Part shown: one piece after another, positions 13,683 through 20,109 of the stretch | Numbering within the stretch: the stretch's first letter is position 1 | Layout of the letters: every line of letters starts with the position of its first letter | Source of the DNA: Ignisphaera sp. | GTDB taxonomy: Archaea; Thermoproteota; Thermoprotei_A; Sulfolobales; Ignisphaeraceae | Assembly (NCBI GenBank): GCA_038735125.1 | Contig: JAVYNU010000007.1 | Span: forward strand, 60,546 to 92,545 | Direction of reading: 5' to 3' | Length of the DNA stretch: 32,000 bases | Notes under the pieces: model-generated | What the model saw: only the letters and a program-made list of their open reading frames with translations | Told to the model about the DNA's origin: nothing | Database searches by the model: none | Made by a program: the position numbers and the translations under genes

Positions 13683-14313
13683 GAAACTCAGACTTCTTGT
13701 TATAACAGATAAAAGGTTGAAGCCAAATGTTGTAAAATCTGTTGAAGAAGCATTGAAAGGTGGTGCAACATCTATTCAGCTTAGATTAAAAGAGTCGTCA
13801 ACACGTGAAATGGTGGAGATAGGTAGGGAGGTTAGGAGGCTAACTAGAGATTACGGAGCTCTATACTTTGTCGATGATAGGGTAGACGTTGCATTGGCCA
13901 CGAACGCTGATGGCGTTCAGCTAGGCCCTGAGGACATGCCTATTAGGATAGCCCGAGAAATAGCTCCAAACCTACTCATCGGGGCCTCTGTATATAGTGT
14001 TGAAGAGGCTTTAGAGGCCGAAAGAGAGGGTGCACACTTCTTAGGAGCTGGATCGGTGTACTCAACACCATCAAAACCAGATGCGAGAGTTATTGGATTA
14101 GAGGGTCTACGGAAAATAGTTGAGAGTGTGAGCATACCTGTTGTTGCCATAGGGGGTATAAACAAGGATAATGTTAGAGAGGTTCTTGAATCAGGTGTTG
14201 TGGGAGTAGCTGTTATATCGGCTGTTATGGCTGCTGAAGATGTTTATAGGGCCACCTTAGAACTTAGAAAAATTGTAGACGAGGTGCTAAGACCAAGTGG
14301 GCAAACTAGATGA
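13669..14313 (+). CDS. thiE: thiamine-phosphate synthase
   Basis: LLVITD, GATSIQLRLKE, ADGVQLGPEDMP, GASV, PVVAIGGI: the ThiE TIM-barrel motifs. Overlaps the thiM 3' end by 14 nt. Confidence 0.9.
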   Translation: MGLTEKLRLLVITDKRLKPNVVKSVEEALKGGATSIQLRLKESSTREMVEIGREVRRLTRDYGALYFVDDRVDVALATNADGVQLGPEDMPIRIAREIAPNLLIGASVYSVEEALEAEREGAHFLGAGSVYSTPSKPDARVIGLEGLRKIVESVSIPVVAIGGINKDNVREVLESGVVGVAVISAVMAAEDVYRATLELRKIVDEVLRPSGQTR

Positions 14314-15262
14314 AATCGTCAAGAAACTGGCTAGAGGGGCTAAGAGGCATCCTAGATCTCTCCTCACATGGTTTGATGATGCAGGGGCTGTAGAAATAAA
14401 TGGGAGATACTTTGTTGTGAAAGCCGATGGTTTTGCCTCTTCCAGGGCTCTCTATCCCTGGTGTAGCTATAGAGATTTTGGTTTTAGAGGTGTTGCGGGG
14501 GCTGTCAGCGATGTTATTGCCAAGGGGTGTAGACCATATGTATATGCCATCTCAATTGGTGTTAAGCCTGAAAACGTTGATTTTATAGAAGATATTATTA
14601 AGGGTGTTGAGGAAGCTGTCGACATATTTGGGGGCTATATAGAGAATATAGATACAAATATCGGTTACGACGACTGGATAGACGTTTTTGTCTTGGGGGA
14701 ATGCCTCTACTATCCTCTTCCAAGAGGGGCAAGGGAGCTAAGCAAGGTTATTTTGCCTAGGAGAGTAGGGCTATCTGTGATGGCATATATGGAGTATGTC
14801 GAGAAGAGAACACCTAGCATCGACGAGGTACGCAAATTCAGTTGTAGACCCATGCCATATACGCGGATAGTTGATGCAATAGAGTTTAGCAGAACAGGTT
14901 TAGAGGGCTCTATAGATATTAGCGACACATTTGCGGAGGCACTTCAGCAGCTAAGTGAAGTCAGTGGGACGGGTGTATACATACAGGAGAGCCCCTCTAG
15001 AATTTTGCACCCACTAGCAATTGAATACGTCAAGAGGGTGGGTTTAGACCTGCAACTAGCTGTTTTGGCGTCCAACGAAGAGTACATACCTCTCTTAATA
15101 GTGAAACCAGGATACGAAGAAGAGGTTCTAGATGTGTTGAAGAGCATAAGTTTAGAACCTGTGGTGATAGGCACCATAACATTGAAGCAAGACTTGATGT
15201 GGATGGGTAGGGTAATGCCAAAGGTGGTGTGGGACTATATCCAAGGTGCAGTAACCATATGA
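14297..15262 (+). CDS. thiL: thiamine-monophosphate kinase-like PurM-superfamily protein
   Basis: FDDAGAV, VVKADGF, VSDVIAKGCRP and FGGYIENIDTN match the AIR-synthase-related N-domain pattern. Overlaps thiE by 17 nt (GTG start). The function is assigned mainly from operon context. Confidence 0.6.
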   Translation: MGKLDEIVKKLARGAKRHPRSLLTWFDDAGAVEINGRYFVVKADGFASSRALYPWCSYRDFGFRGVAGAVSDVIAKGCRPYVYAISIGVKPENVDFIEDIIKGVEEAVDIFGGYIENIDTNIGYDDWIDVFVLGECLYYPLPRGARELSKVILPRRVGLSVMAYMEYVEKRTPSIDEVRKFSCRPMPYTRIVDAIEFSRTGLEGSIDISDTFAEALQQLSEVSGTGVYIQESPSRILHPLAIEYVKRVGLDLQLAVLASNEEYIPLLIVKPGYEEEVLDVLKSISLEPVVIGTITLKQDLMWMGRVMPKVVWDYIQGAVTI

Positions 15263-15339: not shown

Positions 15340-16368
15340 TCATTTGATGCTATCTATTATTTCTTTGTACAGCTTTAGAGCTTGGTCCGCGTCTGTTGTT
15401 CCCTTTACAAATACTTTTCCATTACGTAATATCATTACCTCGAAGCCGCTTACCACACCATAAGCCACAGCACCATCATATATCCTCAGATTCTTAATAA
15501 GATTGGATTTTGTCAGCTTTTCTAAATCTAGCTCTGCACGGCTTTCAGATACTATTTTAACTGCTCTTGCCCCACACATAGGCTTTACATTTTTGCCTCC
15601 TTTGAATAGGTAATCAAATCGCTTGTAAACACATGTAGGACAAGAACTATTTCTCCTTACATAAGCTCTTTCAATTGCTGCACTATATGCATCGACCACA
15701 TATAGGTGCTCATCCACATAACCCTCGGTCAAATATTTTATTGCGATAGATAGTGCCACTGATACTGTTAAATCTACAGCTATTGGCGTCACACCAAAAA
15801 TTTCACATGCATTTTCTCTCGCTCTAGCTCTTGGAATAAAGCACTTTAGACAAGCTGTTTTCTCTGGCACAACAAGCTTTACATTTCCATACCATCTCTC
15901 AACACCAATCATAACCCAGGGTTTGCCAAGATTCACACACGCTTCGTTTATCAGGTACCTAGTATCCATATTGTCAGTGCCATCTATAACGAGATCTACA
16001 TCTCTGATAAAATTCTGGATATTATCAGCATCAACATCATCTACAATAGCCTCAACCTCAACACCACTGTTAATCTCCTTTAAACGGTTTCTACATGCAA
16101 TAGCCTTGGGCACCCTCCCAAAAGCATCCTCTTCTCTAAACAGACGTGTTCTATGGAGATTGCTTACCTCAACAACATCCCTATCAACAACTCTGATAAA
16201 ACCGGCACCAGCCCTGGCAAGAACTTCAGCCACGCTACTGCCTGTAGCACCGCAGCCGATGATGGCTATTCTGGACTCGGCTAATTTAAGCTGCTTTTTG
16301 ATTCCTAGAACAAGTATCTGTCTCGAATATCTCTCAATAAAGTCTGCAACATCTATTCCCCTATTCAT
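15340..16368 (-). CDS. E1-like ThiF/MoeB/HesA-family adenylyltransferase with an extra C-terminal domain of about 90 aa
   Basis: YSRQILV, nucleotide loop IIGCGATGSSVAEVLARAG, DRDVVEVSNLHRTRLF, two CxxC pairs (CLKC, CPTC), and a conserved Cys in NACEIFGVTP. The C-terminal extension (…EVMILRNGKVFVKGTTDADQALKLYKEII) is not rhodanese-like. Confidence 0.85.
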   Translation of the reverse strand: MNRGIDVADFIERYSRQILVLGIKKQLKLAESRIAIIGCGATGSSVAEVLARAGAGFIRVVDRDVVEVSNLHRTRLFREEDAFGRVPKAIACRNRLKEINSGVEVEAIVDDVDADNIQNFIRDVDLVIDGTDNMDTRYLINEACVNLGKPWVMIGVERWYGNVKLVVPEKTACLKCFIPRARARENACEIFGVTPIAVDLTVSVALSIAIKYLTEGYVDEHLYVVDAYSAAIERAYVRRNSSCPTCVYKRFDYLFKGGKNVKPMCGARAVKIVSESRAELDLEKLTKSNLIKNLRIYDGAVAYGVVSGFEVMILRNGKVFVKGTTDADQALKLYKEIIDSIK

Positions 16369-16501: not shown

Positions 16502-16729
16502 TTAGAATTCCGCTGTTTTTCTAAGCCTTACTTCGTAGTACTTATCTTTTTCATTTACATCAATTGTTCCAATGCCAAATGCCTCAACAGATTCTCTAAT
16601 CATATCGACACAGAGCTTTGATGTTGTTAGCACAACTATTTCCTCTCCTCTGCGCACCTTGGAGAATTCTCTAATGGTCTTGACCAGTGGTTGCGGACAC
16701 TCTTCGCCTCTAAAGTCTAGCACCTTCAT
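16502..16729 (-). CDS. tusA: TusA/SirA-family sulfur-carrier protein
   Basis: 75 aa with LDFRGEECPQPLVK (the CPxP active-site motif). The ATG lies 4 nt after the stop of the upstream acylphosphatase-like gene. Confidence 0.85.
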   Translation of the reverse strand: MKVLDFRGEECPQPLVKTIREFSKVRRGEEIVVLTTSKLCVDMIRESVEAFGIGTIDVNEKDKYYEVRLRKTAEF

Positions 16730-16733
16730 TTGC

Positions 16734-17045
16734 TTAAAGCCCTTCCTCGCCAGCGCATTTAATGATCATGAAGTCCGTGTACAGCCCCTTATATTCGTGT
16801 TCTACCACATCAACTCGATTAATGGTGTATACCCTATTCTGGAGTACTCTGTCTATCAGTTCACGTATTTCACTGTCTATGCCTTCAACATATATCTCAA
16901 CACAGTCGCTATTAGGTATATTCATTATAAAACCTCTTAACCCAAGCATCTTTGCTATTCTCCAAATATATCTTCTAAACCCAACACCTTTAACTTCTCC
17001 ACAAATAGTAATTGAAGATGCTTTGAGCATCTCCCTCACCCTCAA
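16734..17045 (-). CDS. acylphosphatase-like domain protein
   Basis: ICGEVKGVGFRRYIWRIAKMLGLRGFIMNIPNSDCVEIYVEG matches the V-x-G-x-V-Q-G-V-G-F-R ... G-x-V-x-N signature. The catalytic Arg and Asn equivalents are both present. The TTG at 17045 overlaps the upstream stop; an alternative ATG lies at 17030. Confidence 0.75.
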   Translation of the reverse strand: MRVREMLKASSITICGEVKGVGFRRYIWRIAKMLGLRGFIMNIPNSDCVEIYVEGIDSEIRELIDRVLQNRVYTINRVDVVEHEYKGLYTDFMIIKCAGEEGL

Positions 17046-18451
17046 ACCAACTTAAATTGTGAAAGAATCTTTTTATCAGCAACAAACTTTTCCAGTGATT
17101 TCGGTGCTTCGACCTCCGGCTCACCCAAATCTACAACCTCGCCTATTACAGCTGGTTCTAGTCCCCGAGACTTCAGATCCCTAACTATATCCTCAGATAT
17201 TTCGCTAGGTGCGATAATTATGAAGGGCCCATTAGTTCCACTTGTAGCATTTGGAATCACATACAGCTTTGTTGCTATCTCCGATATCTCTGGGTATAGG
17301 AGAGGTACTGAGTATAGTCTTATCTTACTATTTGTTCTCTCTGCAAGCTCTTTAACAACAAAAATACCAGGTCCTGTGACGTCTGTTGTAACTGCTATGT
17401 GTTCATCTGGTTTGTATTCCTCTTTACTGGGTGGCAGATATTTGTACACAACCTCTGCAGCATGTATATTGGGTTTAGATATGAGTTCCACAACACTATC
17501 TTTTATTTTCTCTATATATTTCACATCTATGCCTTGTTTCTCTAGGTCTTTAACAAGGCTCTCATCTATTACACAGGATAGGTATAGGTTCAGTGGGGCT
17601 AGCTCTCCCATAGGCCTTGTTATGATGAGCTTCATACCCTTCTTGACCTTATCTTCAAATAGTGGCGGAGCTCTATCTGTGTAGCCAATAACAGTTGCTC
17701 CCATTAGTAGCCTCCCCTTCTTTGGCTGTATCACATCGATTATTTTGATGCCATATTGTTTTGAGTAAAGGTCTACATTCTTTAATAGCTTTCCTAAAAG
17801 TTCTTCTGTAGGAGCATTTACCACCGGTGCAATTCTTAGATCCTTGTACACACCTAAGACGAATATGTCGTTAAGTGCATTACTCAAAGCTCCGCTAACC
17901 TGCTTAAAGTCTCCAGGCTCTTGAGATGGATCTATAATATGAATTGTATCATTGTTAATAGCTGTAAAGCCCTCTAGTTTAGTTGATGGAGATATGAAAT
18001 CAAAAAGTGCAAACTCGTCTTCTGGAAACGGAGTTATAATTGAGTGTCCCTTTCCAACTACTATCTCTAAACCGCTTTTGGCAAGCCCTCTGTATACAGG
18101 CAAAACTCTGTTGATGAATCCCTCTGGAGAATCTGCATATCTCTGATACACTTGGACAACAGTAACAGAATAAAGCTTTTTATGTCTTTTCAAACTATTC
18201 TCCACATCGATATCAACTCCAAGAGGGTATATAGACCTATGAACCTCATCAGCACAGCCAGGCAAAACTAGGGCATCTTCTCTAGGTGCTATGAAAAACC
18301 TAGAGTTTTTAAGTTCATCCCTAATAGTCTTTAAGGCAGGGTAGACAACCCTTAGAAGATCAACCTTAACAGCACAGCCAGTTGCAAGCGCAAGCGGATT
18401 TAAGCCAAGTTTCTTATAATACTCAACTCTCTTGATAATCTCTTCAAACAT
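17042..18451 (-). CDS. SelD-like (selenophosphate-synthetase family, PurM superfamily) protein with internal expansion
   Basis: By-eye alignment to E. coli SelD gives these matches:
- N-terminal loop ATGCAVKV versus GAGCGCKI (Cys and Lys conserved).
- EDALV versus DDAAV.
- NALNDIFVLG versus NAISDIFAMG.
- KLIITRPMG versus KLFLTKPLG.
- TTDVTGPGI versus MTDVTGFGL.
- AVIGEVV versus TAIGELV.
I chose the ATG at 18451 because TAGGTGGCTTATG places a GGTG Shine-Dalgarno-like element 5-8 nt upstream. The ORF-track TTG is at 18478. Confidence 0.7.
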   Translation of the reverse strand: MFEEIIKRVEYYKKLGLNPLALATGCAVKVDLLRVVYPALKTIRDELKNSRFFIAPREDALVLPGCADEVHRSIYPLGVDIDVENSLKRHKKLYSVTVVQVYQRYADSPEGFINRVLPVYRGLAKSGLEIVVGKGHSIITPFPEDEFALFDFISPSTKLEGFTAINNDTIHIIDPSQEPGDFKQVSGALSNALNDIFVLGVYKDLRIAPVVNAPTEELLGKLLKNVDLYSKQYGIKIIDVIQPKKGRLLMGATVIGYTDRAPPLFEDKVKKGMKLIITRPMGELAPLNLYLSCVIDESLVKDLEKQGIDVKYIEKIKDSVVELISKPNIHAAEVVYKYLPPSKEEYKPDEHIAVTTDVTGPGIFVVKELAERTNSKIRLYSVPLLYPEISEIATKLYVIPNATSGTNGPFIIIAPSEISEDIVRDLKSRGLEPAVIGEVVDLGEPEVEAPKSLEKFVADKKILSQFKLV

Positions 18452-18458
18452 AAGCCAC

Positions 18459-18710
18459 CTACCTCTTCTTCTTAACAACTATTCTCCAAACACCTCTATC
18501 GATATTCTCAACACCTAGTACCTCATGACCATCGGCTTCAACAGCTTTTGGCACGTTCTCACAAGATGGCGGATTATCAGTTATAACCTCTAAGACATCG
18601 CCGGGATTGATCTGTGAAAGAGCTTTTCTAGTATATATGACTGGATATGGACATACAAACCCTCTGACATCAAGTACATACTTATTGTCGCCAATCTTTG
18701 CAAATCTCAA
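18459..18710 (-). CDS. tusA: TusA/SirA-family sulfur-carrier protein
   Basis: 83 aa with LDVRGFVCPYPVIYTRKAL (CPxP motif). TTG start. The stop lies 7 nt before the ATG of the SelD-like gene. Confidence 0.85.
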   Translation of the reverse strand: MRFAKIGDNKYVLDVRGFVCPYPVIYTRKALSQINPGDVLEVITDNPPSCENVPKAVEADGHEVLGVENIDRGVWRIVVKKKR

Positions 18711-18738: not shown

Positions 18739-18838
18739 ATGTATGAATATATAAGTATTGCGAATTTGAATGCATAAAAAGTTGGATGGATTGTGTTAAA
18801 AGCAATATTCTTAATTTACATTAACAATCCTTATTATA

Positions 18839-18853
18839 TTAACAGTGTTATAG
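18839..18853. promoter_or_regulatory. second copy of the palindromic motif (TTAACAGTGTTATAG) upstream of yeeE
   Basis: 13 of 15 positions are identical to the 18724-18738 part of the first site. It lies 9-23 nt upstream of the ATG at 18862. Confidence 0.4.
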
Positions 18854-18861
18854 GTGATATA

Positions 18862-20109
18862 ATGGTCGATCACACTATAAATGACAGGGCAAATACTAAA
18901 GACGTTATCAGCTTTAAGAAGTATTTGGAGAGCAACTATTTTAGAAAGGTTTTCGGATCAGATGGATGGCCTATTGTGGTAGCAGGTATTTTAATAGGTT
19001 TAATAAATGTTGTATCATATGTATGGGTTAAGAAGCCTTTTACTGTGTATACAGGGTTTCTAAACTGGGGGCAGCACATATATAGCTTACTAGGCTTGAG
19101 CAGTCTAGCGGATACGCCTAAGACCTCGCCTCTTCTAGACCCTACAAGTGCTGGCGATATAGGGGCTATTTTAGGTGCTATGATAGCTGCTATACTATCT
19201 AATGAATTCCGTTTACGGGGGGTAGATAGACTAGGAGTTATTGAGAGTATTGTTGGGGGTGTTTTAATGGCTCTGGGAGTTTCAATGTCGTTTGGATGCA
19301 ACTGGGGAGGCTTTTTATCTGCTATAACATCTTGGAGTCTACATGGATATGCATTCCTATTAGGAGCCTTAGCAGGTGGCTATCTAGGACAAAGATATGT
19401 GCTGTGGAGAGCTGAGAAAACATTTAGACTAGAATCAAAAGTTGATCTCTCGATAGGCTCCGGCTATGAGAGAAAGCGTGAAGCTGGCCAATATGGCGTA
19501 TTGTTGGTTATACCACTAACAATAATAATTTTAGCATCTATTTACTACGCCTATATGAAAAGCTATATGATTGGTGGATTACTAATAGGCGTAACCATGG
19601 GCATGATACTACAGAGAGCAAGATTCTGCTTTGCAACAGCATTTAGGGATTTGTTTGGTGGCCCAGAGGCTCTAAGGGCAATCAACATTCATAAGGGAAT
19701 TGCTGTAGCAATGCTTGTAGGGGCTACGGGTGTTTTTGCACTAAAATACATGGGTTTGGCTGATATATGGATACTTGTCTCACCTGTTTATATAACTAAT
19801 GTGATTGGAGGAGCCATATTTATATTTGGAGCTATTATGGTTGGTGGTTGTGCATCGGGAATTCTATGGCGTATAGGCGAAGGCCATTTGAAAGCACTGA
19901 TAGGATTGATATCAACAGTTTTAGCATATCCAATGTTTGTCAATATTATTAGCAAGCGCTTAGTTACATACCCAAGAATCTTTATGCCAGGTGCGGTTGG
20001 CTGGATTGCTGCATATGCAATATTCATAATATTCATATCTATATATCTAATGCTTCTTCTCTATCAAGAGTATAGACTGCAGAGAGAAAGGGGCTTGTCA
20101 CAACGCTAA
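18862..20109 (+). CDS. yeeE: YeeE/YedE-family (TsuA-like) sulfur/selenium-compound transporter
   Basis: Polytopic membrane protein with the family's conserved Cys motifs (SFGCNWGG, RARFCFATAFRD, VGGCASGILWR). I chose the ATG at 18862, preceded by AGGTGA. The ORF track starts at 18793. Confidence 0.85.
   Translation: MVDHTINDRANTKDVISFKKYLESNYFRKVFGSDGWPIVVAGILIGLINVVSYVWVKKPFTVYTGFLNWGQHIYSLLGLSSLADTPKTSPLLDPTSAGDIGAILGAMIAAILSNEFRLRGVDRLGVIESIVGGVLMALGVSMSFGCNWGGFLSAITSWSLHGYAFLLGALAGGYLGQRYVLWRAEKTFRLESKVDLSIGSGYERKREAGQYGVLLVIPLTIIILASIYYAYMKSYMIGGLLIGVTMGMILQRARFCFATAFRDLFGGPEALRAINIHKGIAVAMLVGATGVFALKYMGLADIWILVSPVYITNVIGGAIFIFGAIMVGGCASGILWRIGEGHLKALIGLISTVLAYPMFVNIISKRLVTYPRIFMPGAVGWIAAYAIFIIFISIYLMLLLYQEYRLQRERGLSQR

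Follow-up and report, generated by a model that had tools for sequence, protein, structure and literature searches.

A stand-alone acylphosphatase abutting a SelD-like gene in Ignisphaera, the probable split counterpart of a fusion known from Thermoproteales

Ignisphaera sp. is an archaeon in which a small acylphosphatase gene, acyP, lies directly behind a gene for a SelD-like enzyme of the PurM superfamily, within a 32,000-nucleotide stretch of DNA that is referred to here as the window. The encoded protein is probably the free-standing form of the domain that is fused to the C-terminus of the SelD-like protein in Thermoproteaceae, and as such would belong, as a dedicated accessory subunit, to a sulfur-activating enzyme that is fed by TusA and depends on ATP. 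It is very likely that the acylphosphatase is a functional partner of the SelD-like enzyme; this link is strongly supported because the adjacency of the two genes recurs across archaeal lineages and becomes a fusion in Thermoproteaceae. Both the pairing and the hypothesis were already published in 2014 for the fused form (PMC4210487), which makes the discovery a modest one. What is new is that the split form is found widely, among others in Ignisphaera, Acidilobaceae and Pyrodictiaceae, in orders that had been reported to lack the gene, that the fusion arose once, that the catalytic residues are invariant and that the module is accessory.

Li et al. 2014 (BMC Genomics 15:908, PMC4210487) described the SelD-like family, all of whose Thermoproteales members carry a fused acylphosphatase-like domain, and concluded that the two are strongly linked in function. 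Their proposal was that the SelD-like enzyme yields an acylphosphate-like or acyl-thiophosphate product which the domain then hydrolyses, essentially the role that the initial annotation suggested for AcyP; as an alternative, they had the enzyme make thiophosphate from sulfide and ATP. In their survey the family occurred only in Sulfolobales and Thermoproteales and was absent from Desulfurococcales. The role of the family is still termed speculative in a 2026 review, and we found no experimental work on any member in a literature that consists of the 2014 paper and the reviews citing it.

The operon runs on the minus strand in the order tusA, selD-like, acyP, tusA and is followed by an E1-like gene, with a transporter gene diverging from it on the other side. 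The features, in positions of the window, are the following.

18793..20109, plus strand: YedE/YeeE-type sulfur-compound transporter, divergent (PF04143, 136 bits)
18459..18710, minus strand: tusA/YedF-like sulfur carrier, upstream, with the CPxP cysteine (PF01206, 87.4 bits)
17042..18478, minus strand: SelD-like enzyme of the PurM superfamily, NF038049 (612 bits, cut-off 250; likely start ATG 18451)
16734..17045, minus strand: acyP, stand-alone acylphosphatase (PF00708, 62.1 bits; PDB 2BJD, E 1.3e-12; catalytic Arg and Asn)
16502..16729, minus strand: tusA-like sulfur carrier, downstream (PF01206, 60.3 bits)
15340..16368, minus strand: ThiF/MoeB-type E1-like adenylyltransferase, 133 nt past the downstream tusA (PF00899, 204.9 bits)

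Only 4 nt separate the stop of acyP from the start of the downstream tusA, and the upstream TusA has its best NCBIfam match in YedF, with 66 bits where the cut-off is 79. Farther away lie genes for ThiM, ThiE, a PurM-type protein, an O-phosphoserine-sulfhydrylase-like PLP enzyme, IscU and IscS. With TusA, YedE, Thi proteins, the PLP enzyme and IscU/IscS as neighbours, acyP is thus surrounded by sulfur-mobilisation genes. The PurM-type gene, the second of its superfamily in the window (14297-15262, plus strand, AIRS domains), follows ThiM and ThiE and converges on the E1-like gene; it is probably ThiL. No ubiquitin-like or ThiS partner for the E1-like gene was seen. In a set of 80 SelD-like loci from named genomes, TusA lies within 4 kb of the SelD-like gene in 66 and a YedE-like gene in 30, whereas a ThiF-like gene does so in only 5; the E1-like gene is a lineage-specific neighbour outside the conserved core.

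The assignment of AcyP to the acylphosphatases is straightforward. A Pfam profile search matched it to PF00708 with an E-value of 6e-17, its 62.1 bits standing against a cut-off of 22.5, and residues 12-94 align to profile positions 3-85 of 85, that is, to the whole domain. Its top match among solved structures is the acylphosphatase of Sulfolobus solfataricus (2BJD), and the N-terminal domains of HypF come next. The phosphate-binding loop reads C-G-E-V-K-G-V-G-F-R, catalytic arginine included, and differs from the V-x-G-x-V-Q-G-V-x-F-R taken as the criterion for this loop in having lysine for the consensus glutamine. The strand G-F-I-M-N, of the expected type G-[FYW]-[VA]-x-N, carries the catalytic asparagine. 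The initial annotation, made from the letters of the DNA, had noted an intact signature in GEVKGVGFR and GFIMN, and both motifs are indeed present. AcyP is a real acylphosphatase and, judged by its intact residues, should be catalytically competent; that it is active as an enzyme seems likely.

The gene can be read from either of two starts, as a protein of 103 amino acids from TTG 17045 or of 98 amino acids from ATG 17030. The TTG (17045-17043) overlaps the TGA stop codon of the SelD-like gene (17044-17042) as TTGA, with acyP in a different frame, while the ATG lies 11 nt past this stop and is preceded by the Shine-Dalgarno-like GGTGAGGGAG; it is the likelier start. The two genes abut whichever start is used, in agreement with the overlap or abutment first read from the sequence. 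A hairpin of 9 bp (17014..17034, minus strand; −15.4 kcal/mol, z = −3.5), which also matches as terminator-like, spans both GGAG and ATG of acyP, so that translation of acyP could depend on ribosomes finishing the SelD-like gene. We rejected the hairpin as a coupling device, as it is not conserved in 12 related loci, and this lack of conservation makes its significance doubtful.

The partner is a protein of 478 amino acids that belongs to the family NF038049, named "SelD-related putative sulfur metabolism protein" or "HyperS". Canonical SelD models give it only 31-45 bits, TIGR00476 for the canonical selenophosphate synthetase SelD among them with 30.8 bits (cut-off 125). Its closest relatives are Ignisphaera sequences with 64-68% identity. 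There is no solved structure within the family, the nearest being human SPS1, which matches the C-terminal two thirds with 29 bits. Cys35-x-x-Lys38 lies in the loop G-C-A-V-K-V-D, and true members of the family all read G-C-[AS]-V-K-V-D there, with invariant aspartate ligands and invariant asparagine in addition; going by sequence, this loop is the counterpart of the loop in SelD that reads Sec/Cys-x-x-Lys.

The family reaches beyond hyperthermophilic Crenarchaeota. Clear members of NF038049 with Cys-x-x-Lys also occur in metagenome-assembled genomes (MAGs) of marine and groundwater Nitrososphaerota, of Halobacteria and of Methanobacteriota and in Hydrothermarchaeales, and one member lies on a 406-kb contig labelled Acidobacteriota. 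A divergent sister group from two genomes (G377 and G389) scores at the family cut-off, with 240-267 bits; here G-C-S-N-E replaces G-C-x-V-K, the lysine is lost, neither acylphosphatase nor TusA lies nearby, and the function is possibly a different one.

The maturation of [NiFe]-hydrogenases provides a known pairing of an acylphosphatase with a PurM-superfamily protein, in HypF and HypE. The initial annotation took it for the only well-known pairing of this kind, overlooking the fusion described by Li et al. 2014 (PMC4210487), and saw its logic echoed in the Ignisphaera genes. One half of the parallel survives: an acylphosphatase domain with arginine and asparagine is tied to an ATP-using enzyme of the PurM superfamily, and in Ignisphaera a cysteine-borne intermediate is likewise proposed. 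A HypF/HypE-like chemistry would have AcyP process carbamoyl phosphate and the PurM-like enzyme dehydrate a thiocarbamate on the cysteine of TusA, which could supply the reactive thiol, and AcyP does match the NCBIfam hypF model, with 44 bits (cut-off 466) and in the N-terminal domain only. Such a chemistry is very unlikely here. With its 103 amino acids AcyP lacks the zinc-finger, YrdC and Kae1 domains of HypF, and the operon holds neither YrdC nor a Kae1 carbamoyltransferase domain. The SelD-like protein ends in ...SQFKLV without the C-terminal carrier cysteine of HypE, as had been read from its translation, it reaches 27.7 bits against 251.6 with the hypE model, and it retains the Cys-x-x-Lys loop of SelD; the partner is SelD-like and not HypE-like, as first proposed. 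A complete HypF, an open frame of 787 amino acids, is encoded elsewhere in the same genome, and the neighbours of acyP are sulfur carriers and a sulfur transporter, with no hydrogenase genes. Membership of the HypF/HypE system fails on every defining feature tested, and the resemblance is an analogy only.

The case for a partnership of AcyP with the SelD-like enzyme is carried by its recurrence. Of the SelD-like loci, 117 non-identical ones could be evaluated. A separate acylphosphatase gene lies downstream in 43 of these (immediately so in 41), the domain is fused to the C-terminus of the SelD-like protein in 28, which form one clade (Thermoproteaceae), and no acylphosphatase is found nearby in 46, mainly from Sulfolobaceae and Nitrososphaerota. 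A count of this kind had been suggested with the initial annotation, which would have given up the link had the adjacency been unique to one genome; its recurrence in many archaeal lineages rules this out. A profile search in a sample of 401 genomes of the phylum found NF038049 in 53, of which 26 have a same-frame fusion (all members of two families, 17/17 and 9/9), 12 from five families, that of the window included, have a separate gene on the same strand directly downstream, and 15 have no acylphosphatase nearby, 12 of these belonging to a single family.

The 80 loci from named genomes divide into 36 that are split and adjacent, 6 that are fused, 2 with the gene within 1.1 kb and 36 with none, although 2 of the latter run into the end of a contig, which precludes a judgement. 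Split and adjacent pairs occur in Ignisphaera, other Desulfurococcaceae, Pyrodictiaceae, Acidilobus, Caldisphaera, Thermofilaceae and Hydrothermarchaeales, as well as in one MAG each of Methanomethylicia, Wolframiiraptoraceae, Methanobacteriota and Thaumarchaeota. The fused ones come from Vulcanisaeta, Caldivirga, Pyrobaculum, Thermoproteus and one unclassified Thermoproteales MAG, and those with no linked acylphosphatase include Sulfolobaceae, most Nitrososphaerota and Halobacteria MAGs. In 36 of the 37 named loci with a separate copy (the 36 split and adjacent ones and one with the gene nearby), the distance from the SelD-like stop to the start of the acylphosphatase domain ranges from −23 to +34 nt, with a median of −4. 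This adjacency is far beyond chance.

A tree of 119 distinct SelD-like sequences puts all 28 fused forms in one clade with a support of 100, and the fusion was thus a single derived event. The fused clade is sister to a clade of Sulfolobaceae without acyP, while split forms are scattered over the remainder of the tree, its deepest branch included, and the neighbour must therefore have been lost several times. In the window the two proteins are not fused; a separate open reading frame occupies the position that the fused domain holds in Thermoproteaceae.

An acylphosphatase is missing from about 40% of the SelD-like loci and is consequently not an obligatory part of the machine. Where no acyP is linked, outside Sulfolobaceae, tusA directly follows the SelD-like gene, and in about 60% of the distinct sequences the acylphosphatase is inserted between the SelD-like protein and the second TusA. 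The conserved core consists of SelD-like and TusA, to which the acylphosphatase is an accessory and not a universal part. We considered a non-orthologous replacement of acyP and rejected it: in loci that lack acyP, no other phosphatase was found in its position, which is taken by TusA or unrelated genes instead. All five of the genomes checked that lack an adjacent acyP carry an acylphosphatase elsewhere.

The cluster of selD-like, acyP and yedE is present in 4 of 16 genomes of the genus of the window (its own and three others, at 68-69% DNA identity), and behaves as an accessory island in the genus.

The genome of the window has four matches to PF00708: HypF, the linked copy, a canonical copy and a degenerate one. 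The canonical acylphosphatase has 89 amino acids and lies beside genes for archease and isochorismatase. With this ordinary acylphosphatase and HypF already present, the linked AcyP is an extra paralogue. The degenerate copy (contig C1:305466-305693, minus strand; PF00708, 25 bits) lies between two genes for HtrA-like trypsin/PDZ proteases, and in the alignment it has lysine and aspartate at the positions of the catalytic arginine and asparagine, for which reason it is probably no phosphatase.

In size, fold family, phosphate-binding loop and catalytic asparagine AcyP resembles housekeeping archaeal acylphosphatases such as 2BJD. It differs from them in sitting in a sulfur operon, in the exchange of glutamine for lysine in the loop, in having no G-P-P loop and in its scores with the NCBIfam equivalogs for housekeeping acylphosphatases (NF011020, for example), of which the best is 54.7 bits against a cut-off of 103; among the matches listed (25 of 28) it is under the cut-off for every equivalog. 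Across 79 distinct SelD-linked acylphosphatase domains, the equivalents of G10, V12 and G16 and the catalytic arginine and asparagine are conserved in 100%, and the loop glutamine, which is lysine in the window, in 89%. The linked domains also lack a G-P-P loop, which housekeeping acylphosphatases and the corresponding domains of HypF typically have. A tree of 55 short acylphosphatase domains over 90 columns does not resolve a separate SelD-linked clade at its base, and an AU test on the same short domain did not reject monophyly of the linked copies (p-AU 0.135).

Acylphosphatases are nearly ubiquitous, being present in 12 of 14 control genomes, and AcyP could in principle be an ordinary housekeeping enzyme that merely happens to stand beside the SelD-like gene with no specific role. 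The tree without a resolved linked clade is compatible with this, as are two genomes of Acidilobaceae type in which the linked copy is the sole acylphosphatase and may double as the housekeeping enzyme. Against it speak the fusion into a single polypeptide in 28 distinct sequences, the gene pairs that overlap or abut in 36 of the 37 split loci, an adjacency that is found across several phyla, and the second, more canonical acylphosphatase that the genome of the window keeps in the unrelated context of archease and isochorismatase; of 8 genomes with a linked AcyP that were checked, 6 likewise have another stand-alone copy. We regard a chance neighbourhood as highly improbable.

The YedE-type membrane protein, the TusA/YedF-type carrier and the SelD-type enzyme together recall the bacterial yedE-yedF-selD neighbourhoods of selenium metabolism. 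The SelD-like enzyme could accordingly make selenophosphate for some selenium trait, with AcyP editing it, and the flanking genes do score best on YedE and YedF models that NCBI ties to selenium metabolism, while the catalytic residues of SelD are kept. Unlike its bacterial counterparts, the Ignisphaera trio stays under the curated cut-offs of the selenium families, the YedE and YedF scores without exception, and no selenium-use genes were found in the genome. SelU and SepSecS in particular were not found in this genome, which is 99.9% complete, and their absence argues for sulfur over selenium. Li et al. 2014 (PMC4210487) report a selenium-use trait in no crenarchaeote. A selenium module is thus hardly to be expected here.

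A route for sulfur through the operon can be sketched. A sulfur compound, possibly imported by the YedE/YeeE transporter, would be the source, and a TusA persulfide would hand its sulfur to the SelD-like enzyme, at Cys35 of the Cys-x-x-Lys loop. This enzyme would then phosphorylate the sulfur with ATP, as SelD does with selenide. The product would be either thiophosphate or a phospho-sulfur intermediate that is enzyme-bound or of acyl type. AcyP may bind and cleave this phospho-anhydride-type species with its arginine-containing phosphate loop and its water-activating asparagine, and the cleavage may drive or edit the transfer by which the second TusA receives the sulfur. Which substrate is used and in which order SelD-like and AcyP would act are both part of this putative scheme. 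That AcyP acts on a phosphorus-sulfur compound from the SelD-like enzyme, be it thiophosphate, perthiophosphate or acyl-thiophosphate, is a tentative proposal that we consider possible but rather doubtful; thiophosphate lies outside the known specificity of the acylphosphatase fold because it is no acyl phosphate.

AcyP might also contribute without catalysis or only indirectly, by binding phosphate or a nucleotide and so gating or stabilising the SelD-like enzyme, or by aiding a step from ADP to AMP. This would suit a module that is dispensable in about 40% of the loci, with tusA directly after the SelD-like gene there, and the loss of the G-P-P loop in linked copies suggests a remodelled surface. 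The water-activating asparagine is, however, invariant along with the arginine in 79 of 79 linked copies, which fits retained hydrolysis better than mere binding. As for the step from ADP to AMP, canonical SelD is not known to require a helper for hydrolysing ADP. We therefore judge a non-catalytic or indirect role to be unlikely.

As the probable separate form of the fused domain, AcyP has its closest known counterpart in the Thermoproteales fusions (Li et al. 2014; NF038049). Both share the family, the position of the domain after the C-terminus of the SelD-like protein, the Cys-x-x-Lys loop, TusA/SirA-like neighbours, of which two flank the pair in Ignisphaera, and the proposed role. They differ in that the acylphosphatase of Ignisphaera is a separate, abutting gene, in that the locus also has an E1-like gene and a transporter of the YedE/YeeE type, and in the Ignisphaera-like host, from an order that Li et al. 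2014 (PMC4210487) reported to be without the gene. Our survey corrects the published picture: the SelD-like family reaches beyond Sulfolobales and Thermoproteales, its fusion with the acylphosphatase is derived and arose once, and the acylphosphatase is accessory.

The natural split version offers two separately expressible proteins and two TusA carriers in one operon, which makes it convenient for reconstitution and for asking whether biology makes thiophosphate. If the phosphorus-sulfur reading were true, thiophosphate would be a genuine metabolite that archaea produce and use, and the acylphosphatase fold would gain both a new class of substrate and its first defined physiological role outside HypF.
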